64,000 bases of DNA. It comes from Kiloniellaceae bacterium. Lineage in GTDB: Bacteria > Pseudomonadota > Alphaproteobacteria > Kiloniellales > J153. This document shows positions 1 to 24,357 of this stretch, piece after piece. The notes beneath the pieces are model-generated. The model saw only the letters and a program-made list of their open reading frames with translations, was not told the origin of the DNA and ran no database searches. Location of the stretch: positions 4,642 through 68,641 of the forward strand of contig JAJFGP010000088.1 of the NCBI GenBank assembly GCA_021776055.1, written 5' to 3'. The stretch's first letter is position 1. The number at the start of each line of letters is the position of its first letter. Made by a program: the position numbers and the translations under genes.

Positions 1-459
1 GAGTATCCCGAGCATGATCTCGAAGACCTCGATATCGGCGCCGTCCAATGCGTTGCGCAAGGTCAATGCGGCTTCCGTATCCCCCTCGATGGTGAGATCG
101 CGGGAGAAGAACAGGGCATCACCGTCGGCGCGGCCTTCCAACAGATCGACGAGGGTCGCAAGAGCGCCGCTGATGACCACCGCCGCGGCCGGCGCCGGAT
201 CGTCCGTGCGCAACACGTGTAAGGTCGGCGGCTGGGCGCCGGGCCGCAATAGGGCCTTGAACGGCACGTCCAGCGGATCGATCAGGAATACGGTCTCGGC
301 CAGCGGCCACAACCGTGCGAATACGTCCGGATGGCGGGCCTGCACCCGTCGCAATGCCAGGCGCAAGACCGCTTCGACCACCGCGGACGGTAGAGGCCGC
401 GCCGCCATGCCGAGCAACAGCGCCGGCGACAACGGCGGTGTCCCCTCGAGCGATGCCAT
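1..459 (-). CDS. ubiT: SCP2 sterol-binding domain protein, UbiT/YhbT-like; start codon is in the window, 3' end runs off the window start
   Basis: Absent from the ORF track because it is open at the window edge. Minus-strand ATG at 459 gives MASLEGTPPLSPALLLGMAARPLP...DGDALFFSRDLTIEGDTEAALTLRNALDGADIEV, the C-terminal signature I associate with SCP2/UbiT proteins. Confidence 0.6.
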   Translation of the reverse strand, partial: MASLEGTPPLSPALLLGMAARPLPSAVVEAVLRLALRRVQARHPDVFARLWPLAETVFLIDPLDVPFKALLRPGAQPPTLHVLRTDDPAPAAAVVISGALATLVDLLEGRADGDALFFSRDLTIEGDTEAALTLRNALDGADIEVFEIMLGIL

Positions 460-680
460 GGGCGCCACGTATGCTCTCCGATTCACGGAAGTTGGAGATA
501 GGCTGATGGAATAGAGGCAAACCGGACTCGCCGCCTTGACCTATCTCAATACCTGCTGCCATTCGGCCTGACCTGAGAGCGAATCGGGGCGGCTTGACGC
601 TGTGCCGGGAAGGCAATACCTAGAGGGCCCTGGACGAAAAAGACACGATCGCCAAGCCGGAATCCCCCAACTGGAAGCTC

Positions 681-1223
681 ATGGCCGTATTACCCATCAT
701 CATCGCCCCCGACCCGCGCCTAAAACAGGTCTGCGTCCCAATCGACCGGGTCAACGACGAAATTCGCCGGCTCATGGACGATATGCTCGAGACCATGTAC
801 CTAGCGCCGGGTGTTGGTTTGGCGGCCCCGCAGGTGGGTATCCTCAAGCGCGTTATCGTCGTCGATGTGAGCAAGGATGAGGGCGAGCGGCAGCCTCATC
901 TTATGGCAAATCCCGAATTGGTCTGGGTCGCCGACGAGGATGCCAATGCCGAGGAGGGCTGTCTGTCGCTGCCCGACCATTTCGGCGATGTGGTGCGGCC
1001 CGCATCGATCCGCGTGCGCTATCTGGACCACGAGAACGAAATCCGCGAAAGCGCCGCCGAGGGTTTGTTGGCGACCTGCATCCAGCACGAAATGGACCAC
1101 CTCGAAGGTATCCTTTTCGTCGATCACATGAGCGCACTGAAGCGCAACATGATCCTGCGCAAGCTGATCAAGGCAAAAAAGGCGGGTGATCTGCCCGTGG
1201 TCGAATCGGCGGCCGTATCCTGA
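681..1223 (+). CDS. def: peptide deformylase
   Basis: 180 aa; motifs [15 protein letters not shown] and HEMDHLEG; followed by fmt. Confidence 0.95.
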
Positions 1224-1269: not shown

Positions 1270-2208
1270 ATGACCAGCTTGCGCCTGGCCTTCATGGGCA
1301 CCCCCAATTTCGCGGTTCCCGCCTTGCAGGCGCTCGCGGCGGCCGGGCACGAGATCGCCGCCGTCTACAGTCAACCGCCGCGCCCCGCCGGGCGGGGCCA
1401 GCAACCCAAGCCGTCGACCGTGCATGCCGTGGCGGCCGAACAAGGCTGGCCCGTGCGTACACCTGAAAGCCTGAAGGACCCCGCGGCTCAGCGAGACTTC
1501 GCGGCATTGGCCTTGGATGTGGCCGTGGTGGTCGCCTACGGATTGCTCTTGCCGTCGCCGATCTTGGTGGCGCCGCGGCTGGGCTGTCTCAACATCCATG
1601 CCTCCCTGCTGCCGCGCTGGCGCGGCGCGGCACCGATTCAGCGCGCTATTCTGGCCGGCGATTCCGAGACCGGGGTTACCATCATGCAGATGGACGAGGG
1701 CTTGGATACCGGACCCATCTTAGCCCAGCGGACAGTACCCATCGGCGCCACGGACACGGCGGCGACCGTGCACGATACCCTGGCGGCGTTGGGCGCCGAG
1801 ATGATCGTTGCAACTCTAAGCGATAGCGCCCTGACCGCCCGACCGCAGCCGGACGAAGGCGCCACGTACGCCGGTAAGTTATCGCGTGCCGAAGCGCGGT
1901 TAGACTGGCGGCATTCGGCTGTGGACCTTGAACGTCGGGTGCGCGCCTTTTCTCCCTGGCCGGGAGCAAACTTCACAGTAAACGGCGAGACGGTCAAAGT
2001 GCTGGCGGCCGAGGTTGGCCTGGATCACGACACTGCCGCGCCCGGCACGGTCCTGGACGACCGTCTGACGATAGCTTGCGGAGATGGCGCGCTACGTCCG
2101 ACCCGGGTCCAGCGCGGCGGTCGGGCGGCGTGCGATACGGCGGCCTTCCTGCGCGGTTTCGCCATCCCGGTGGGCACCTGCCTACCATTGCCAGAGGCTC
2201 CCGCGTGA
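1270..2208 (+). CDS. fmt: methionyl-tRNA formyltransferase
   Basis: Internal ATG at 1270 gives [22 protein letters not shown]; also has [20 protein letters not shown]; classic def-fmt pair. Confidence 0.93.
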
Positions 2209-2945
2209 GCCGCTACAAGCTGGTCTTGGAATACGATGGGTGCGGTCTGGTCGGCTGGCAACGCCAGGATAACGGCCCCAGTATCCAGGCGGCCCTGGAA
2301 GAGGCGGTGCATCGCTTCTGCGGCGAGACGGTCACCGCCACCGGCGCCGGGCGCACCGATGCCGGCGTGCATGCCTACGGCCAGGTGGCGCACGTCGATA
2401 TCGAAAAGCCGACCACCACCGATACCCTGCGCGATGCCGTAAACCATCACTTGCGGCCGGCGCCGATTGCCGTGCTCTCGGTCGAGGCCGTGACGGACGA
2501 TTTCCACGCCCGCTTCTCCGCGGTGCAGCGCCGGTATCTCTACCGTATCGTCAACCGGCGGGCGCCGCTGACCTTGGATCGCGGACGGGCTTGGTGGGTC
2601 CCGGCGCCGCTCGATGCCGCCGCCATGCACGCCGCCGCACAAAGTTTGGTTGGCCGGCACGATTTCACCAGCTTCCGGGCCAGCGAGTGTCAGGCCCGCT
2701 CGCCGGAGAAAACGCTAGATGTCCTAGATGTTGCCCGACGCGGTGAGGAGATCGAGGTCACCGCCACGGCCCGCTCGTTCCTGCATCACCAAATTCGCAA
2801 CATCGTCGGCACGCTGCGCCTGGTCGGGGCGGGCAAATGGACTAGCAGCAATGTCGCCCGCGCCCTAGCCGCCCGCGACCGCTCCGCCGCCGGCGAAACC
2901 GCCCCGGCGGATGGTCTGTACTTCCTCGGTGCGACGTACGAATAG
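2205..2945 (+). CDS. truA: tRNA pseudouridine(38-40) synthase
   Basis: GTG at 2205 overlaps the fmt TGA (GTGA). Translation [21 protein letters not shown]...[11 protein letters not shown]...FHARFSA...[12 protein letters not shown]. Confidence 0.9.
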
Positions 2946-2951
2946 GCTTGG
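2903..2951 (+). repeat. left copy of a 49-bp direct repeat (authentic truA 3' end plus stop plus 6 nt)
   Basis: cccggcggatggtctgtacttcctcggtgcgacgtacgaataggcttgg; 46/49 identical to 3483..3531. Confidence 0.9.
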
Positions 2952-3074
2952 CATAGCTCGAGCATTCGCGAGCCACCTTGTGGCCGCAGAAATAGGGGTA
3001 GCGTCCCCTTTTTTCTTTTTTGATCACTCGCGGCGCCCCCATGGAAATAGGTAATTCCGGACGCGCTTCCATGG

Positions 3075-3383
3075 TCAAGACCGACCTATGACAACTTCAA
3101 AATGCAATCCAAGCTGTTCGCGATCCTTGACAAATTTTAACGCACGCTGGGTGACATTGAAGCCGCCCTCAGTCTTAGAAGTAAAATCAATGCTGTGCTC
3201 GGAATTCGGTTGAATCCATTCGTCCGTCCGGAGGAAACCGTCAATCCCAAGAATATTGAAACCCTCTTTCTCAGCTGCTGCAATGAATTCGAGAGTAACG
3301 GCGGGGGTGAACATGAGCACACCACCCTCTTGGAAACCTTTGGTTCGGAATCGCTCCTCAAGAGAATCGGGATTGTGTTTCAT
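3075..3383 (-). CDS. hypothetical 102-aa protein carried on the low-GC islet
   Basis: ORF 3075..3467; the internal ATG at 3383 gives MKHNPDSLEERFRTKGFQEGGVLMFTPAVTLEFIAAAEKEGFNILGIDGF.... Hand count of ~40-50% GC on sampled lines versus >60% in the flanks. No family recognised. Confidence 0.45.
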   Translation of the reverse strand: MKHNPDSLEERFRTKGFQEGGVLMFTPAVTLEFIAAAEKEGFNILGIDGFLRTDEWIQPNSEHSIDFTSKTEGGFNVTQRALKFVKDREQLGLHFEVVIGRS

Positions 3384-3410
3384 GGTGTGTATGGATTCTG
3401 AATTGCTGAT

Positions 3411-3445
3411 GATAATTGGGGACAGTAAGATAATTGGGGACAGTA
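3411..3445. repeat. tandem direct repeat, 2 x gataattggggacagta (18-bp period)
   Basis: Read directly at 3411-3427 and 3429-3445. On the minus strand it lies between a ctatat -10-like hexamer and the ATG of the islet ORF, which is an operator- or iteron-like position. Confidence 0.8.
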
Positions 3446-3482
3446 TATAGTTTTCTGTAGTTTCCACCTGGATGCCGCCGCT

Positions 3483-3531
3483 CCCGGCGGATGGTCTGTA
3501 CTTCCTCGGTGCTACGTATGAGTAGGCTTGG
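3483..3531 (+). repeat. right copy of the 49-bp direct repeat (orphan copy of the truA 3' end)
   Basis: cccggcggatggtctgtacttcctcggtgctacgtatgagtaggcttgg. It would still encode [13 protein letters not shown]-stop; its 3 differences from the left copy are all synonymous third positions. Confidence 0.9.
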
Positions 3532-3533
3532 TC

Positions 3534-4112
3534 CTAGCGAATCATGCCGTCCGCCATGCCGGTGATCACGATGCTGAGCACCAGGTCCAGGGCGACGAAG
3601 CCGGCGGCGGCGATGGGGGTGATGTCCAGGGCGGTTCGTGTGACGAACCACTGATAGGCCAGGATCACGGAATACACCAGCACGTGCAGCAAAGCCGAGG
3701 CGCCCTCGGGGATCAGGCCCATGGCACCCAGGAAGATGACCGGCAGATAGACGATCATCTGGACGACCTGAGACCAGTTGAAGGCGACGATGAAGCCGAT
3801 GTAGGCGTTGTCGCGGCCAATGGCCTGGCAGATGGCCCGCGTGACGATGGGATAAACCGTCCAACCCAGCGTATAGGCGGAGGCATGGGCGATGACCAGG
3901 CGTAGCGCGCCGGCCGATATTTCCCGCTCGCTCAGGTCGATTGCCACCAGGGCGAGATACGCAGGAAAGATCAGGGCGGCGGCAAAAAAGGACTTCCAGA
4001 ATCCCTCCGTCGACCGGTCGAAATAGACCAGCCCACCGCGATCCAGCCGCGCCAGCCGCCATGCCCCGTATACGCCGTAAACGATGTCGCGTTGACTTGG
4101 TATGAGTATCAA
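3534..4112 (-). CDS. hypothetical polytopic inner-membrane protein downstream of dapE
   Basis: Hydrophobic helices (FFAAALIFPAYLALVAI, IGFIVAFNWSQVVQMIVYLPVIFLGAMGLI, AAAGFVALDLVLSIVITG). No in-frame ATG/GTG before the first helix; a TTG at 4112 overlaps the dapE TGA (TTGA), suggesting translational coupling. Confidence 0.6.
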   Translation of the reverse strand: MILIPSQRDIVYGVYGAWRLARLDRGGLVYFDRSTEGFWKSFFAAALIFPAYLALVAIDLSEREISAGALRLVIAHASAYTLGWTVYPIVTRAICQAIGRDNAYIGFIVAFNWSQVVQMIVYLPVIFLGAMGLIPEGASALLHVLVYSVILAYQWFVTRTALDITPIAAAGFVALDLVLSIVITGMADGMIR

Positions 4113-5379: not shown

Positions 5380-6234
5380 TTAAGCGCGCAACAGGTCGTT
5401 GATCGAGGTCTTGGCGCGGGTCTGCTCGTCGACTCGTTTGACAATCACGGCGCAATAGAGGCCGGGTCCAGGGCTGCCGTCGGGCAACGGCTTGCCCGGT
5501 AAGGTGCCGGGAACCACCACCGAATAGGCGGGCACGCGGCCGACGAACACCTCGCCGGTGGCCCGGTCGATAATCTTGGTCGAGGCGCTGATGAAAACAC
5601 CCATGGATAGGACCGAGCCGGTCTCGACCACGACCCCCTCGACCACCTCGGAGCGGGCGCCGATAAAGCAATTGTCCTCAATGATCACCGGGCCCGCCTG
5701 CAGGGGCTCCAGCACGCCGCCAATGCCGACACCGCCGGATAGATGACAGTTCTTACCAATCTGCGCACAGGAGCCGACGGCAACCCAGGTGTCGACCATG
5801 GTGCCGCTCTCCACCCGGGCGCCCACATTGACGAAGCTGGGCATGAGGATCACGTCCGGCGCGATATAGGCGGATCGGCGTACGACACACGTGGGCACGG
5901 CCCGAAAGCCGGCGGCCCGGAACTCTGCCTCGCCCCAGCCGGCGAACTTGGAGGGCACCTTGTCCCACCAGGACGCTTCGGCCCCCGGCCCGCCGGGGAC
6001 TATGGCCATGTCATTTAGCCGAAACGAGAGAAGAACGGCTTTTTTCAACCATTGGTTGGCATGCCAACGGCCCTCGATCTTTTCGGCGACACGGAAGGTG
6101 CCGCTGTCGAGGCCGGTAAACGCCTCCTCGACGGCCTCGCGCACCTCGCCCTTGGTGGCCGGCGAGATCTGATCGCGGGCCTCCCAGGCGGCATCGATGG
6201 TGCTTTGCAGGGTGTGCGTGGGTGTGCCGCTCAT
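5380..6234 (-). CDS. dapD: 2,3,4,5-tetrahydropyridine-2,6-dicarboxylate N-succinyltransferase
   Basis: 284 aa; hexapeptide-repeat region and N-terminus [25 protein letters not shown] typical of DapD. Confidence 0.93.
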
Positions 6235-6438
6235 AGGTCTACTCGCTATTCAAGGAAAGTGGCTTAGGCGTCGTGAGGGTGGGCGGGCAAGATGCGCAAC
6301 CCTTAACGCCCTGTCAACGATCACTGGGGGTCCCAGGGAGATCGGGGAGGGGCAGGGGGGTTAAGCGCATCTTAAGCCCGGATGGGGCAGATTCATGGCG
6401 GATTTTGGGGACAAATTGCCCTTCCGCCAAGGATCGAG

Positions 6439-8163
6439 ATGGCCAAAGGACCCGCCAGGAAAACCGTAGACGAGGCCTACGACCGCGCCGTGGAGGAGGC
6501 GGTTGATCTGGGCCTTTTTGCCGTCGGTGGGTCGTTCGAGCGATTCCCCGGCGCGGTGCTCGTCGCCGGCCGTAACGGCATGGTCCTGGCGGCGAACGAG
6601 TCCGCCGCGCCCATTGCCGCCTTGTTGCAGCAGGGTCGCAGCGAGGATTTGCGGGCGGCGATCCACTCGGCGCTCTCTGGCCGGGCGGCGCAAATCAACC
6701 CTCTGTTGCTCGCACGCGAGGATGGCAAGCGCACCGTCGGCCTAGCCTACGACATGGCGATCTTGCCGTGGGGCAGTGGCACGGCGGCGTTGCTTCTTGG
6801 CCGCGACATTACGCTCGAGCGCAGCCTGCGCTCGGCTCTGATCGAATCGCGCCAGCGCTATAAGGATCTGGTCGAGGCGTCCAGCGACTTTGCCTGGGAG
6901 GCCGATGCCTCGGGTCGCTTCATCTTCGTCTCGGCGCAAGGGGCGCTCGGCTACAGCGCTGCCGAGTTGGTGGGCGCCCAGGCCCTCGATCTGCTCGTCG
7001 ATACCACATCCGATCAAGAGTCGCCCTTCACCACGCGCGCCCCCGTGCAAGAGGTGGAGATGTGGGTGAAACGGTCCGACGGAGAGTCGGCCTGTTTGCT
7101 CGCCACCGCATTGCCCCTAAGCGGCCCGGACGGCGAGTGGTGCGGCGCCCGGGGCTTGTGCCGCAACATCACCGCCGAGCGGACGCACGAGGCGGCGCTC
7201 GCCGGTGACCGCAACCGCGAGCGTTTGCTCGCGTATATTCTCGGGATCGTGCGCGACGAGATGGATCCGGCGCATATGCTACACGCCGCCGCCGGTGCCC
7301 TGGTCCCGGCGTTGCCGGCGACGGGGGCCAGCATCTACCGCTTGGACGAATCCGGGGCCCTAATTTGCGTCGCCCAGGCCGGCACCCTACCGCCGGACGA
7401 CGTCCTGGAGCCGGCCTTGCAACGCATTGCCGATGGCGAGGAACAGGTAGAGCAGGCGGTACCCTCCGGCGCCCTGTTTGCCAAGGAGACTCGCTTTCAG
7501 GACGAGCGCAACGGCGTGCTGTGCTTGTGGCGCAACGGCGCCATTGGTCCCTGGCACAGCGAGGATCGTTTCTTGCTGACCGAGATCGCCGGTCAGATCG
7601 GCCTGGCCAACCATCAGTTCACCCGGCAGCAAGCGTTGGAAGAAGCGTCCTCGACCGATCCTCTGACCGGTTTGCTCAACCGGCGTTGCTTCGTCGAGGC
7701 TCTTGAGGACCGCTATATGCGAGGCGCCGAGCAACGCCGGGGCGCGGCGCTTTTCTTCATCGATTTGGACAACTTCAAGCTGGTCAACGATACCCATGGC
7801 CACCAGCGGGGCGACATGGTGCTGGCGGCCCTTGCCCGCATTCTGCATGAACAGACCCGTAGCCGGGACTTGGCGGCGCGCCTGGGCGGCGACGAGTTCG
7901 CGCTCTATGTCGAGGACATCAGCCCTGACGCCGCCGAACGGAAGGGGCGTGAGCTGATTCTCGCCGCCGAGGGTCTCAAGGAGTATTCGGGCGATCCGGG
8001 CCGGCCGTTGGGCCTCTCGATTGGTATTGCCGATTGCGACCCGGATCGGCAAGAAACCCCGGACGAGCTTGTCGAGCGCGCCGATCAGGCCATGTATGCG
8101 GTCAAACGGCACGGTAAGGGTGGTGTCTCCCTGGCGCCGCCGCCCGGTAAAGGACGGCGCTGA
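6439..8163 (+). CDS. PAS/GAF-containing diguanylate cyclase (GGDEF)
   Basis: C-terminus DPLTGLLNRRCF...FFIDLDNFKLVNDTHGHQRGD...RLGGDEFALYV. ATG at 6439 is preceded by an aagga SD. Confidence 0.85.
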   Translation: MAKGPARKTVDEAYDRAVEEAVDLGLFAVGGSFERFPGAVLVAGRNGMVLAANESAAPIAALLQQGRSEDLRAAIHSALSGRAAQINPLLLAREDGKRTVGLAYDMAILPWGSGTAALLLGRDITLERSLRSALIESRQRYKDLVEASSDFAWEADASGRFIFVSAQGALGYSAAELVGAQALDLLVDTTSDQESPFTTRAPVQEVEMWVKRSDGESACLLATALPLSGPDGEWCGARGLCRNITAERTHEAALAGDRNRERLLAYILGIVRDEMDPAHMLHAAAGALVPALPATGASIYRLDESGALICVAQAGTLPPDDVLEPALQRIADGEEQVEQAVPSGALFAKETRFQDERNGVLCLWRNGAIGPWHSEDRFLLTEIAGQIGLANHQFTRQQALEEASSTDPLTGLLNRRCFVEALEDRYMRGAEQRRGAALFFIDLDNFKLVNDTHGHQRGDMVLAALARILHEQTRSRDLAARLGGDEFALYVEDISPDAAERKGRELILAAEGLKEYSGDPGRPLGLSIGIADCDPDRQETPDELVERADQAMYAVKRHGKGGVSLAPPPGKGRR

Positions 8164-9428
8164 TGGTCCGCTCCGCAAACAAAAAGGAGGCGGCCGCCGA
8201 GTCCAACCTTAGCTATGAGGACGCGAAGCGTCTGGCGCAGAATTCTGATATGTTGGTGCGCGCCCAGCTTGCCGGGCGCGACGATATCCGGCCCGAGATT
8301 CTCTACTACCTGGCGGAAGACGTCTCGCCCGAGGTGCGTTGCCAGATTGCCGCCAACCGGCACACGCCCGGTCAGGCGGACCTGTTGCTGGCGCGCGATG
8401 CGGACGAGGCGGTTCGCCGCCAGTTGGCACACAAGATCGCGCTGCTCATGCCCGATCTCAGTCCCGACCAGCTGCGCCAGGCGCACGAACATGTGGTCGA
8501 GGTCTTGGAGGTCTTGGCGCAAGACCAGGCAACCCGCGTGCGCCAGATCCTCTCCGATACGCTCAAGGACCTGGCCTCCGCCCCGCCCGGCGTCATTCAG
8601 CGCCTGGCCCGCGATGCCGAGGAGGTGGTCGCGTGCCCAGTGCTCGAATTCTCACCGCTGCTGAGCGATGAGGACCTCATTGAAATCATCAATGGTGGCG
8701 AGCCCGCTCCTGGTAAGCTGCGGGCCGTCTCGCGTCGCCATGGCGTCGGCGAGCAGGTGGCTGACGCTATCGTTGCGACCGAAGAGCAAAGTGCTATTTC
8801 CGAGTTGCTGGCGAACAGCAGCGCGCAGATTCGCGAGGAAACGTTGAACGGCCTGGTGGATGCGGCCCTCGACGTGACGGCCTGGCACGAGCCGTTGGTC
8901 AAGCGGCCAAGCCTGCCCAAGGCGGCGATGTTAAGGCTTGCAGGATTCGTCGCCGGATCGCTCCTGGAGTTGTTGCAAGCGCGCAAGGACCTGGACAAGA
9001 AAACGGCGCGTGCTGTCGCCAAGGAAGTGGAGCGGCGCCTGAAGGATGGCGGCGGTGCCGCCGAAAAGAAAGCCGAACCGCCCGAGGCGCGGGCCAAGCG
9101 CCTGCATGACGCGGGTGGCCTGGAAGACGACGTTCTGGCCCGTGCCATGAACAGCGGCGACCGGGACCTGGTCCGTCATGGACTGGCGGTGCGCGCGGAA
9201 TTACCGGTCGGCCTGGTAGATCACATTCTGGCGGCGCGCAGCGCCAAGGGCGTAACGGCGCTAGCCTGGAAAGCCGGTTGCGCCATGCGCTTCGCCAGCC
9301 AGTTGCAGCTGCGCATGGGGGGTATCGCCCCGTCGCAGGTACTCAACGCCCGCGCCGGGACCGACTATCCCCTAACACCCGACGAAATGAACTGGCAGAT
9401 CGAATTTTTTCAAAGCCTCGCCGGCTAG
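8163..9428 (+). CDS. DUF2336-like HEAT/ARM-repeat protein
   Basis: LSYEDAKRLAQNSD..RPEILYYLAEDVSPEVRCQIAANRHTPGQADLLLARDADEAVRRQLA matches my recollection of the alphaproteobacterial DUF2336 family. Its ATG overlaps the cyclase TGA by 1 nt. Confidence 0.7.
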   Translation: MVRSANKKEAAAESNLSYEDAKRLAQNSDMLVRAQLAGRDDIRPEILYYLAEDVSPEVRCQIAANRHTPGQADLLLARDADEAVRRQLAHKIALLMPDLSPDQLRQAHEHVVEVLEVLAQDQATRVRQILSDTLKDLASAPPGVIQRLARDAEEVVACPVLEFSPLLSDEDLIEIINGGEPAPGKLRAVSRRHGVGEQVADAIVATEEQSAISELLANSSAQIREETLNGLVDAALDVTAWHEPLVKRPSLPKAAMLRLAGFVAGSLLELLQARKDLDKKTARAVAKEVERRLKDGGGAAEKKAEPPEARAKRLHDAGGLEDDVLARAMNSGDRDLVRHGLAVRAELPVGLVDHILAARSAKGVTALAWKAGCAMRFASQLQLRMGGIAPSQVLNARAGTDYPLTPDEMNWQIEFFQSLAG

Positions 9429-22857: not shown

Positions 22858-24021
22858 TTAGCGGACGTAGACGTGGACTTCGTTGACCTGGGCGTTCTTG
22901 CTGCTGGTCGCCGATAGGGTAATTCGGTCGGCGGGTAGGCCCATGTTGGTCAGGGTTCGCAGGACCCCTTCGGCGTTGCGCCGCGACCGGCTGGTGGCCA
23001 GGGATACTTGCGCCGGCGTGCCCACGTTCGGGGCGACGGCGACTAAATCGAAGCCGGCGTTGGGTTTTCGATCCAGGGCACGGCTAACCGCCGTGAACAG
23101 CGCCTGCTCGTATTCGACCTTCGATTCATTGAAGCGGATGACCACTAGGGGCTGCCTCTGACCGACCAGGGCGGACGCGCCGCCTGCCGGTGCCGCCGCC
23201 GGAATGCCGTAGGCGCGGCTGGCCAAACTGGTGCCGATGTATTCGCCGTTGTCGATGGCAACCTGCATCGCCGTGAGATTGGATCGCTCGGCCGCGAAAT
23301 AGTTTTGCGCCCGCGCCACGTCTTCGGTCAGCTCGTTGAGCAAACGGTCGATGACGACGACGGTCTTGTTGACCTCGTCTTCCAACACCGCCAGTTGCCG
23401 ATGGTCTTCTTCCACGGCGCCGCGCAGCCCGAGGGTGGCGCGCGTCGATTCCAACAGGAACGCCGCCAAGGCCGACGTCGACGAGGCTTCGTTGGAAAGC
23501 GTATTCAAGCTCGAGATGCTTTCGCCGACTTTATTCAGTTCACCCTGCGCGCCGTTCCATTGGGCGACCAGCTCCGGGTTGCCGGGTGTCGTGCCGACCT
23601 GCAGGCGTGCGTTAACCTCGCCGACCATGTTGTGATAGGCGGTTGCGCTCTGCCGGGCGGCGGCGCGATAGCCCTGCAGTGAATCATTGTGTTCGGCCAT
23701 GCGCGTCTGAAGCCGGCTCAGATCGGTGCGCAATTCCTCGACCTTCTGGCCGACGGCGGTACCGGTCGGTTGCGCCGGCGTAACGCCGGGGGCTTCAAAG
23801 ACCGTCGTGCCGAGGCGGGGTCCCGATCCCGGCGCGCTGCTGCTTGGCGCTGTCGAGTCCGAGCTTGGCGCGGCGGCAGCGGTCTGCTTCGATTTGTTGG
23901 ACGCGCTTTCTCCGGTGAGCGACGGCAACAGAGCATCGTCGGTCAGCGCGCAGCCAGCCAGAAGAAAAGAAAGCGCAAGCACTTCGGCAGTACGACGAAG
24001 GTAGGTACCGCTCTTATGCAT
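22858..24021 (-). CDS. lipoprotein with coiled-coil region and a degenerate OmpA-C-like C-terminal domain
   Basis: ATG at 24021 gives MHKSGTYLRRTAEVLALSFLLAGC (lipobox). Ser/Ala/Pro-rich linker; heptad-like central region; C-terminus SRSRRNAEGVLRTLTNMGLPADRITL...VHVYVR. Confidence 0.7.
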   Translation of the reverse strand: MHKSGTYLRRTAEVLALSFLLAGCALTDDALLPSLTGESASNKSKQTAAAAPSSDSTAPSSSAPGSGPRLGTTVFEAPGVTPAQPTGTAVGQKVEELRTDLSRLQTRMAEHNDSLQGYRAAARQSATAYHNMVGEVNARLQVGTTPGNPELVAQWNGAQGELNKVGESISSLNTLSNEASSTSALAAFLLESTRATLGLRGAVEEDHRQLAVLEDEVNKTVVVIDRLLNELTEDVARAQNYFAAERSNLTAMQVAIDNGEYIGTSLASRAYGIPAAAPAGGASALVGQRQPLVVIRFNESKVEYEQALFTAVSRALDRKPNAGFDLVAVAPNVGTPAQVSLATSRSRRNAEGVLRTLTNMGLPADRITLSATSSKNAQVNEVHVYVR

Positions 24022-24281
24022 GGAATTGCCCGTCAAATACTGCGAGCCTAACGTTGCTTTCCGCAAAGAAAGAATTGGTTATGCTCGCCCCCCCGGAGTG
24101 TCCGCCGATAGTACTGGATGGGTTCTGGGCGTACAAGTCAGATTTCCCCGCAACACGTTGCCTGGACTCGTCGTGATTCGCAAAGGTTTTGATGATCTTG
24201 CGTACTCGCATTGCTTCGCGTAATGTCCGGCCGCCTTAATAACCACCAAGACATCCTGTCATCCTGGTGGTTCCGCGCGAT

Positions 24282-24357
24282 GCGCCCGTAGCTCAATGGA
24301 TAGAGCGCCTGACTACGGATCAGGAGGTTGGGAGTTCGAGTCTTCCCGGGCGCGCCA
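24282..24357 (+). tRNA. tRNA-Arg (anticodon ACG)
   Basis: Hand-folded cloverleaf, 76 nt with encoded CCA: gcgcccg/cgggcgc acceptor, anticodon loop cuACGga, T-loop ttcgagt. Confidence 0.93.

Follow-up and report, generated by a model that had tools for sequence, protein, structure and literature searches.

The truA gene of a Kiloniellaceae bacterium, which encodes tRNA pseudouridine 38–40 synthase, bears at its 3' end a short insertion of compositionally foreign DNA. The insertion lies in a 64-kb stretch of contig JAJFGP010000088.1, which we call the window and whose positions serve as coordinates throughout (L- and P-numbers denote the contigs and proteins that were compared with it), and it consists of 531 nt of low-GC sequence held between two copies of a 49-nt direct repeat, the first of which is the end of truA itself. 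We recognize the segment as an insertion because relatives show truA and the convergent membrane-protein gene beyond it abutting one another, with a single copy of the 49-mer region. Its one open reading frame (ORF) encodes a 102-residue protein that resembles the colicin E5 immunity protein, ImmE5, in fold. With moderate confidence, we read the whole as a non-autonomous mini-island of 580 nt (one 49-mer plus the 531 nt), flanked by attachment-site (att) sequences, which carries an ImmE5-like immunity gene and was recombined site-specifically into the 3' end of truA.

A polymorphic junction at the 3' end of truA

The left copy of the repeat takes in the truA stop codon together with the last 40 coding nucleotides, and a repeat search of the window finds the same sequence 580 nt further on (2903–2951 against 3483–3531) with 46 of 49 positions identical (94%), its first 30 nt having two exact occurrences in the window and none in 100 shuffles. 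The three differences (GCG/GCT, TAC/TAT, and GAA/GAG) are all at third codon positions and all synonymous in the truA frame, and both copies encode an identical 13-residue peptide followed by a stop; synonymous changes make up 24.6% of the single-base changes that are possible in the 42 coding nucleotides, so that three out of three would arise by chance with a P of about 0.015. Two nucleotides separate the end of the right copy from the stop codon (3534–3536) of the convergent membrane-protein gene. The 531 nt between the copies are the lowest-GC stretch of the 64-kb window, at 48.6% GC, where the window averages 62.9%, truA 67.2%, and the downstream membrane-protein gene 62.6%, and GC at third codon positions is 0.49 in the 102-residue ORF compared with 0.80 in truA. 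An original prediction, made from the sequence of the window alone, had drawn attention to the duplication with its synonymous-only differences, to a low-GC islet put by hand count at ~40–50%, and to a tandem repeat with an 18-bp period inside it, and all three features were reproduced here.

Upstream of truA lie def and fmt, and downstream, on the minus strand, the membrane-protein gene is followed by dapE and dapD. The order fmt–truA and then, convergently, membrane-protein gene–dapE is conserved across the Rhodospirillales, and among the matches listed the gap between the truA stop and the membrane-gene stop is −1 to ~25 nt in dozens of Rhodospirillales genomes. Close relatives were obtained by a metagenome scan with the fast-evolving membrane protein as the query, while a genome scan with TruA as the query gave relatives that, among the matches listed, all stood at ≤75% amino-acid identity. 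The membrane protein itself, which has no Pfam, NCBIfam, PADLOC, or PHROG match, is 27–58% identical in more distant Rhodospirillales and reaches 82–98% only in the closest metagenome contigs. The empty site that the original prediction had proposed to look for is present in L087 and in many Rhodospirillales, with a single copy of the 49-mer region (Table 1). Among the matches listed, no empty site was found in relatives at least 90% identical to the window, and no second copy of the truA end in the relatives with ≤75% TruA identity; an exact scan of the metagenomes for the 49-mer gave no match. Some of the relatives at ≤75% identity have ~0.7–3.2 kb of DNA after truA with genes for an MFS transporter, a methyltransferase, a signal peptidase, and the like, and not for integrases. 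In more distant Kiloniellales, an MFS transporter or other genes stand at the truA/membrane-gene junction.

The same frame encloses a different cargo in L120, where the islet runs from a 49-nt left copy through a left arm (TGTAGTTCGAGCACCCGCGAGCCACC, the counterpart of 2952–2977 in the window), 1.36 kb of cargo, and a right arm that aligns with 3429–3482, to a 49-nt right copy. The cargo comprises a 208-residue protein (570–1193, reverse strand), which is Cys-rich in its N-terminal part and has a DUF4145 domain (Pfam E 1.8e-5), and a 72-residue ORF of no family (320–535, reverse strand), both co-directional with truA and hence opposite in orientation to the window ORF. The same set of repeats and arms can accommodate cargoes that are unrelated and that face either way. 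DUF4145 has frequent connections to proteins of restriction or abortive infection, and the L120 cargo, which has no PADLOC match, may be of a defence type. The left arm of L120 also holds, at ~1380–1490 on the reverse strand, a G+C-rich palindrome of ~150 nt (−43 kcal/mol, z −5.8) that splits the left-arm homology between GAGCCACC and GTGGCCGC and looks like a separate small repeat element put into a hairpin loop.

The junction takes yet other forms in the remaining close relatives. A second, non-coding allele of ~100–235 nt, found in L084, L085, L088, and L116 among relatives about 82–93% identical, changes the C-terminus of TruA to ...GATYDEQTYSGHPGR and carries a hairpin of its own; L116 is a hybrid, in which this allele is joined to a right arm and right copy of the window type. 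The alleles are not distributed according to the overall likeness of the contigs, an indication of exchange by way of the flanks. The truA/membrane-gene junction is a polymorphic hotspot, of which the window islet is one allele.

The arms of the window islet (TAGYTCGAGCAYYCGCGAGCCACC and TGGGGACRGTATATAKTTTYC) contain several smaller features. The 17-mer GATAATTGGGGACAGTA occurs at 3411–3427 and 3429–3445, against a chance expectation of 0.02, and nowhere else in the window even when 3 mismatches are allowed; it is single-copy in L116 and L120, and the tandem pair is therefore a duplication of 18 nt, specific to the window, of the start of the right arm. For the same reason, a two-site operator formed by the pair was considered and rejected. 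The hexamer ctatat, which the original prediction had taken for a −10-like element, lies inside the conserved arm motif, and a promoter scan, which found no sigma-70-like site, lends that reading no support. In the left arm, small hairpins are followed by a G+C stem (2994–3009) and a T-run up to 3022 (terminator scan), and the arm folds as DNA at −16.3 kcal/mol (z −3.4); the stem and T-run, standing between the convergent truA and ORF, look like a terminator, predicted from sequence, that would be able to serve both. An Rfam search of 2700–3700 found no RNA family.

A 23-mer of the right arm (TAATTGGGGACAGTATATAGTTT, 3431–3453) is identical to the inverted repeat that terminates a palindromic unit of L121, a phage contig with genes for terminase, portal, and protease. 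This unit, of which TTGGGGACAGTATATAG is the motif, is ~90 nt long (91 nt in the repeat report) and present in 2.5 copies (5489–5613 and 6118–6208), two full copies that are 98% identical and a half copy, with a fold of −30.8 kcal/mol (z −7.7); one full unit lies in frame within the large-terminase ORF, between the N and C domains, and a related copy of the motif is intergenic in an unrelated metagenome-assembled genome (L061 1548–1563). The motif common to the right arm and L121 could be a fragment of a repeat resembling miniature inverted-repeat transposable elements (MITEs) or repetitive extragenic palindromic (REP) sequences, or else a protein-binding site. No inverted partner of the right-arm motif was found in the window at ≤3 mismatches, and scans of viral contigs for the 16-mer and for the GGGGACAGT...ACTGTCCCC palindrome gave chance-level numbers of matches. 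The hairpin pattern GGGGACAGT-N4-30-ACTGTCCCC was seen in 81 viral contigs (L122–L200) against a rough chance estimate of ~55; many of these contigs are 4.4–4.7 kb long, a Microviridae-like size, and a hairpin conserved within one group of single-stranded DNA phages may underlie this clustering of sizes.

Table 1. Features of the truA islet in the window and forms of the truA/membrane-gene junction in related contigs (percentages in the first column are DNA identity; positions in L-numbered contigs are those of the contig)
Feature	Position	Strand	Details
truA (tRNA pseudouridine 38–40 synthase), intact	2205–2945	+	TIGR00071, E 2.2e-53; PF01416, E 4e-40
Left copy of the 49-nt direct repeat (attL-like)	2903–2951	+	14 truA codons including the stop, plus 6 nt
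Left arm	2952–3022		2952–2977 is CATAGCTCGAGCATTCGCGAGCCACC; 21/26 with L120
102-aa ORF, orphan ImmE5-like immunity protein (predicted)	3075–3383	−	ATG 3383, stop 3075–3077
Exact tandem pair of the 17-mer GATAATTGGGGACAGTA	3411–3445	+	period 18
Right arm	3429–3482		GATAATTGGGGACAGTATATAGTTTTCTGTAGTTTCCACCTGGATGCCGCCGCT; 48/54 with L116, 44/52 with L120
Right copy of the 49-nt repeat (attR-like)	3483–3531	+	no gene upstream that makes the right copy coding
Convergent membrane-protein gene, ~188 aa	3534–4100	−	no family match; 5' limit approximate
L087 (82% to the window)			empty site: GAG TAG + GTT + CTA (membrane-gene stop); one copy of the 49-mer region
L120 (87%)			window-like repeat pair and arms, different cargo
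L116 (92%), right side			right arm with a single 17-mer; decayed right copy (11-residue reading, then stop)
L116, left side			different DNA; TruA C-terminus becomes ...GATYDEQTYSGHPGR
L084 (92%), L085 (93%), L088 (81–85%)			L116-type left part; unrelated DNA replaces right arm and right copy
L086 (88–95%)	5568–8703		3.1 kb with a LysR-type regulator and two methyltransferase-like genes; without repeat
Second non-coding allele	L084 2611–2817; L085 5568–5667; L088 5567–5650; L116 281–386

The cargo protein and its ImmE5-like fold

The ORF of the islet is present as originally called, with 102 codons from ATG 3383 on the minus strand. The corresponding product of the public annotation, P0001, has 130 residues from GTG 3467 and translates the 18-nt tandem repeat (as ILSPII LLSPII); in the light of the family alignment, it was probably called too long, the true start being ATG 3383. 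The protein has no match in Pfam, NCBIfam, PADLOC, or PHROG, and a word-indexed protein search returned only the protein itself. The original prediction had recognized no family, a statement that no longer holds: HMMER against 1.84 billion representative proteins yields 331 relatives at E≤1e-3, mostly of 95–110 aa. An alignment of 72 members has the conserved motifs ILGIDGF, QP.MEHS.D.S, and FEVV, and the window protein carries 10 of the 10 near-invariant family residues.

The profile of this family, compared with the PDB, gives as best matches the ImmE5 chains 2dfx_I and 2fhz_A at a marginal E of 0.0018, over profile positions 21–85. An AlphaFold2 model built with the alignment (predicted local distance difference test, pLDDT, 92.8) has in a Foldseek search of the PDB the top and only significant match 2fhz_A (E 3e-4, probability 1.00; template-modelling (TM) score 0.67/0.65 over 96 columns, with 23% identity), the next match standing at E 0.16, and a model made from the single sequence is also assigned to ImmE5 by Foldseek. 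The suggestion of a toxin-immunity-like fold, which had been put forward with the original prediction as a thing to check, proved apt, the protein being ImmE5-like. The Pfam model of ImmE5 (PF11480) does not match the window protein and is weak in 2 of the 72 aligned members (best E 0.029); we therefore call the protein ImmE5-like in fold and role, and not a member of PF11480.

The genomic company of the homologues points the same way. In P0106 (574 aa), a Colicin_E5 tRNase domain at 327–405 (Pfam E 5e-24; PDB 2dfx_E, E 2e-11) is followed at once, from a methionine, by a domain of the ORF family at 422–511, the classic sequence of a toxin and then its immunity protein. On the Leptospira weilii plasmid NZ_CP092209.1 (L229 1954–4294), a homologue comes directly after a PT-HINT polymorphic toxin, another homologue has as its neighbour a CdiI_2 immunity gene, with genes of type IV secretion adjacent, and some family members are extended by another domain, e.g., PF08958. 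P0106 itself is a secreted colicin-E5-type tRNase and immunity domain called as one protein, probably two fused gene calls. No flanking gene-end repeats were found around the immunity homologues in L081 and L082. The 64-kb window contains no colicin-E5-like toxin domain, and the gene is therefore an orphan immunity gene.

As for specificity, we infer from the homologues and the structural model that the cargo protein most likely protects against a colicin-E5-type, tRNA-cutting toxin of rival bacteria; it would bind and block the anticodon tRNase that comes from competitors, as an orphan "defensive" immunity gene. A functional link between the modification of the tRNA anticodon arm by the truA product and an anti-tRNase immunity gene was entertained and is treated as coincidence. 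Given the orientation of the gene and that no promoter was detected, transcripts of the ORF would probably originate in the co-oriented dapE/membrane-gene operon, reading through into the islet and stopping at the hairpin near 3000.

The protein might instead be a small protein without an immunity function (an antitoxin, a regulator, or an enzyme fragment) that merely resembles ImmE5 in its alpha/beta fold, an alternative to which we give little credence. The silence of the four family databases, a profile E-value of only 0.0018 with 23% identity, and the existence of homologues without a recognized toxin neighbour (for instance, one between the genes for peptidase M32 and RidA) all speak for it. 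They are opposed by the emergence of ImmE5 at the top of two independent tests, profile and fold, in the second as the sole significant match, and by the homologues just described that follow a colicin-E5 tRNase domain or a PT-HINT toxin, stand beside a CdiI_2 gene, or are extended by PF08958.

Proposed site-specific integration and its alternatives

A recombinase, we infer, mediated the integration. An element with a truA-end core between two arms would recombine at the truA 3' end, the incoming truA-end copy (the last 14 codons) would regenerate truA, and the native end would be displaced to the far junction, the two copies thereby becoming attL and attR; truA would be intact because the incoming DNA carries a truA end of its own. 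Since the unit contains no recombinase, it would be what is left of a larger element, stripped of its other genes, or else a cassette that depends on an enzyme acting in trans.

The codons of the repeat copies tell something of their history when the genomes are compared. In L120, the left and right copies differ at 5 positions, 4 of them third codon positions, and the right copies of the window and L120, both outside any present gene, differ from each other at 6 positions, all synonymous (P ~2e-4). Within a genome, left and right copies thus differ at 3 (window) or 5 (L120) positions, while counterparts across the genomes differ at 6–8, and the codon states are matched by lineage, both window copies having GGT GCx and a TAG stop and both L120 copies GGC GCC and a TAA stop. 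Because copies within a genome are closer than their counterparts across genomes, the right copies did not evolve as drifting junk after the lineages separated; at the level of their sequence, these non-coding copies bear the signature of recent coding ancestry. The lineage-matched states imply that the second copy either came from a very close relative or was kept alike by gene conversion: each islet is possibly a recent arrival from the truA context of a close relative, by exchange between attP and attB, or the right copy has possibly been converted, repeatedly, from the selected left copy. The TAT GAG of the window right copy is the state of truA in the closest relatives (L084/L116, L086), and the left copy reads TAC and GAA at these codons. 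This hints weakly at a native 3' part in the right copy and an element-borne one in the left, as the attL/attR model predicts.

Several results weigh against site-specific integration of an immunity cassette. The chief weakness of the att model is that no integrase or excisionase was found. The islet contains no integrase or transposase, as the original prediction had already observed; tblastn with XerD and lambda Int as queries was negative in the window, in 37 metagenome loci, and in L121; a Pfam scan of the low-GC patches of the window gave no integrase or excisionase; there is no integrase in L120, L116, L084, or L086; and neither an integrase nor attP nor an excised form was found in the six allelic contigs, the viral contigs, or the window. 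The islet is single-copy in the 64 kb, and among the matches listed its arms and repeat were found only in the integrase-less islets of L120 and L116. No attP-like junction was seen in viral contigs, of which 2.9 million gave no match to the truA-end peptide pattern or to the left arm, and phage records held no similar DNA. The divergence of the arms (11–19%; 15–19% between the window and L120) is near that of third positions in the flanking genes (14 of 77, 18%, a small sample), so that the arms may be inherited and unconstrained; strong constraint on them was rejected on this ground. The greater likeness of copies within a genome than across genomes could also be explained by gene conversion or target duplication. 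The link to ImmE5, finally, consists of a marginal profile E-value and one structural match, and the Pfam ImmE5 model fails. Of the attL/attR-like integration that the original prediction had proposed, then, the insertion, the empty sites, and the recurrence in L120 stand, and a recombinase, attP, or excised form was not found in these searches; its further idea, that the replacement copy had evolved in another host, is at odds with the lineage-matched codons. A 402-aa ORF elsewhere in the window (22858–24066, minus strand), which adjoins tRNA-Arg (24282–24357) in a region of slightly lowered GC (0.53–0.55), has no Pfam match and is not an integrase by Pfam.

An alternative that fits several of these results is a single ancient insertion in an ancestor that the lineages of the window, L116, and L120 shared, vertically inherited and now inert, with no dedicated recombinase today, the 49-mers being kept alike by RecA-dependent gene conversion from truA and the allele differences being due to deletion, secondary insertion, and allelic replacement through the flanks. 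We regard this as the most serious competitor, yet on balance unlikely. The near equality of arm and third-position divergence between the window and L120, the closeness of copies within a genome, the decayed right copy and hybrid structure of L116, the presence of a different allele in L084, L085, and L088 across relatives of ~82–92% identity (which suggests exchange mediated by the flanks), and the lack of an integrase in the searches are all what it would lead one to expect. It leaves the origin of the 49-nt duplication unexplained, repeats of 49 nt are near the lower limit for RecA-dependent recombination, which counts against its conversion tracts, and the clean swap to an unrelated cargo in the opposite gene orientation between the same arms is easier to obtain with distinct elements of one family. 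Such a family might even be active today: the islets of the window, L120, and L116 would then be integrase-less, single-cargo cassettes, defined by a left arm of ~26–60 nt, a right arm of ~54 nt, and the 49-nt truA-end core, which an unlinked phage or host recombinase inserts or exchanges at the truA end. Marine Rhodospirillales would in that case have, at this junction, a cassette site for genes of competition and defence comparable to an integron or to the satellites of tycheposons, and the right-arm motif common to the palindromic repeat of phage contig L121 would be a protein-recognition element. We consider this extension improbable.

A mechanism of the transposition type, in which the 49-nt repeat is a target-site duplication produced by staggered cuts that were then filled in, seems to us very unlikely. 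It would account for the lineage-specific states shared by both copies (GGT/TAG in the window, GGC GCC/TAA in L120), and the right-arm motif is after all the terminal inverted repeat of the L121 palindromic unit. Against this, the left end has no inverted partner of the motif and there is no transposase, we know of no bacterial element that makes duplications of 49 nt, the 3 and 5 differences between the copies are almost all synonymous, which is unexpected of a drifting non-coding copy, and the identical site was used in two lineages. That the duplication is an assembly artefact is hardly credible at all: L120 contains the full set of two repeats and two arms and L116 the right arm together with the right copy, each with sequence variants of its own, and the window copies differ at 3 sites, and this matching architecture in independent contigs argues that the duplication is real. 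Att-type site-specific integration remains the best reading of the evidence as a whole.

Comparison with known systems

The closest parallels in organization are elements that integrate at the 3' ends of conserved genes. In Escherichia coli, prophage e14 and phage 21 integrate at the 3' end of icd; they are 15–40 kb in size, encode an integrase, and have a longer icd duplication. As in these cases, the 3' end that the element would have supplied in the window is mostly synonymous with the one it replaces, the gene remains whole, and the partial copy beyond the far junction would be the displaced one, whereas the window unit has 0.58 kb, one gene, and no integrase, and its target is truA. Salmonella genomic island 1 (SGI1) at trmE/thdF and mobilizable genomic islands (MGIs) at yicC likewise use the 3' ends of housekeeping or tRNA-modification genes, dusA-specific islands a 5' end, and all have their own tyrosine integrase beside att. 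A further case is provided by the islands of Dehalococcoides that are targeted to ssrA (PMC3146451). The window has in common with the SGI1, MGI, dusA, and ssrA islands a hotspot at a conserved gene, the restoration of the gene end by short direct repeats, and a variable cargo, but these islands carry a tyrosine integrase next to one att site and the window unit does not. A limited literature search for truA as an attachment site returned nothing relevant.

Cis-mobilizable elements (CIMEs), which are flanked by attL and attR at the 3' end of a conserved gene, lack genes for recombination and transfer, and need a recombinase in trans, also resemble the islet, as do other integrase-less islets between att sites that descend from integrative and conjugative elements (ICEs) or integrative and mobilizable elements (IMEs) (PMC5704250). 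The islet is integrase-less, has att-like direct repeats, and holds a small cargo, and it is much smaller than these elements. By definition, a CIME has att sites in common with a known autonomous ICE or IME of related strains (PMC5704250), and since the matches listed include no autonomous element that shares the att sites of the islet, we do not class the islet among the CIMEs. From transposons, insertion sequences, and MITEs, it differs in having no paired terminal inverted repeats and no transposase, and in the divergence of its 49-nt repeat.

The cargo has parallels of its own. With ImmE5 (PDB 2fhz, 2dfx; PF11480), the window protein shares a length of ~100 aa, the alpha/beta fold (TM 0.67), and a marginal profile similarity, and it differs in its 23% identity, its own motifs, a chromosomal location, and the lack of a toxin partner. 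The acquired interbacterial defence (AID) and recombinase-associated AID (rAID) clusters of gut Bacteroidales are arrays of many immunity genes on ICEs or beside a tyrosine recombinase with repeats (bioRxiv 10.1101/471110; PMC12247911); the likeness lies in a toxin-less immunity gene on acquired DNA, with a presumed protection from the toxins of competitors, and the difference in the single gene, the absence of a recombinase, and the different phylum.

Set beside these systems, the islet adds one small case to a kind of genomic islet that is already known and involves no new mechanism, and current concepts are unchanged unless a trans-acting recombinase is found. Should our reading be correct, truA would join the housekeeping genes whose 3' ends are landing sites for mobile DNA, the islet would illustrate how small such units can be (one gene in 0.58 kb), and an unannotated family of ~100-aa proteins, with 331 cluster representatives and no Pfam model, would receive its first functional label, that of ImmE5-like immunity proteins belonging to polymorphic toxin systems. 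The series of alleles at the junction, which includes an empty site, two types of cargo within one set of arms, a hybrid in decay, and inserts unrelated to these, could be a compact natural system for the study of cargo turnover at a hotspot.

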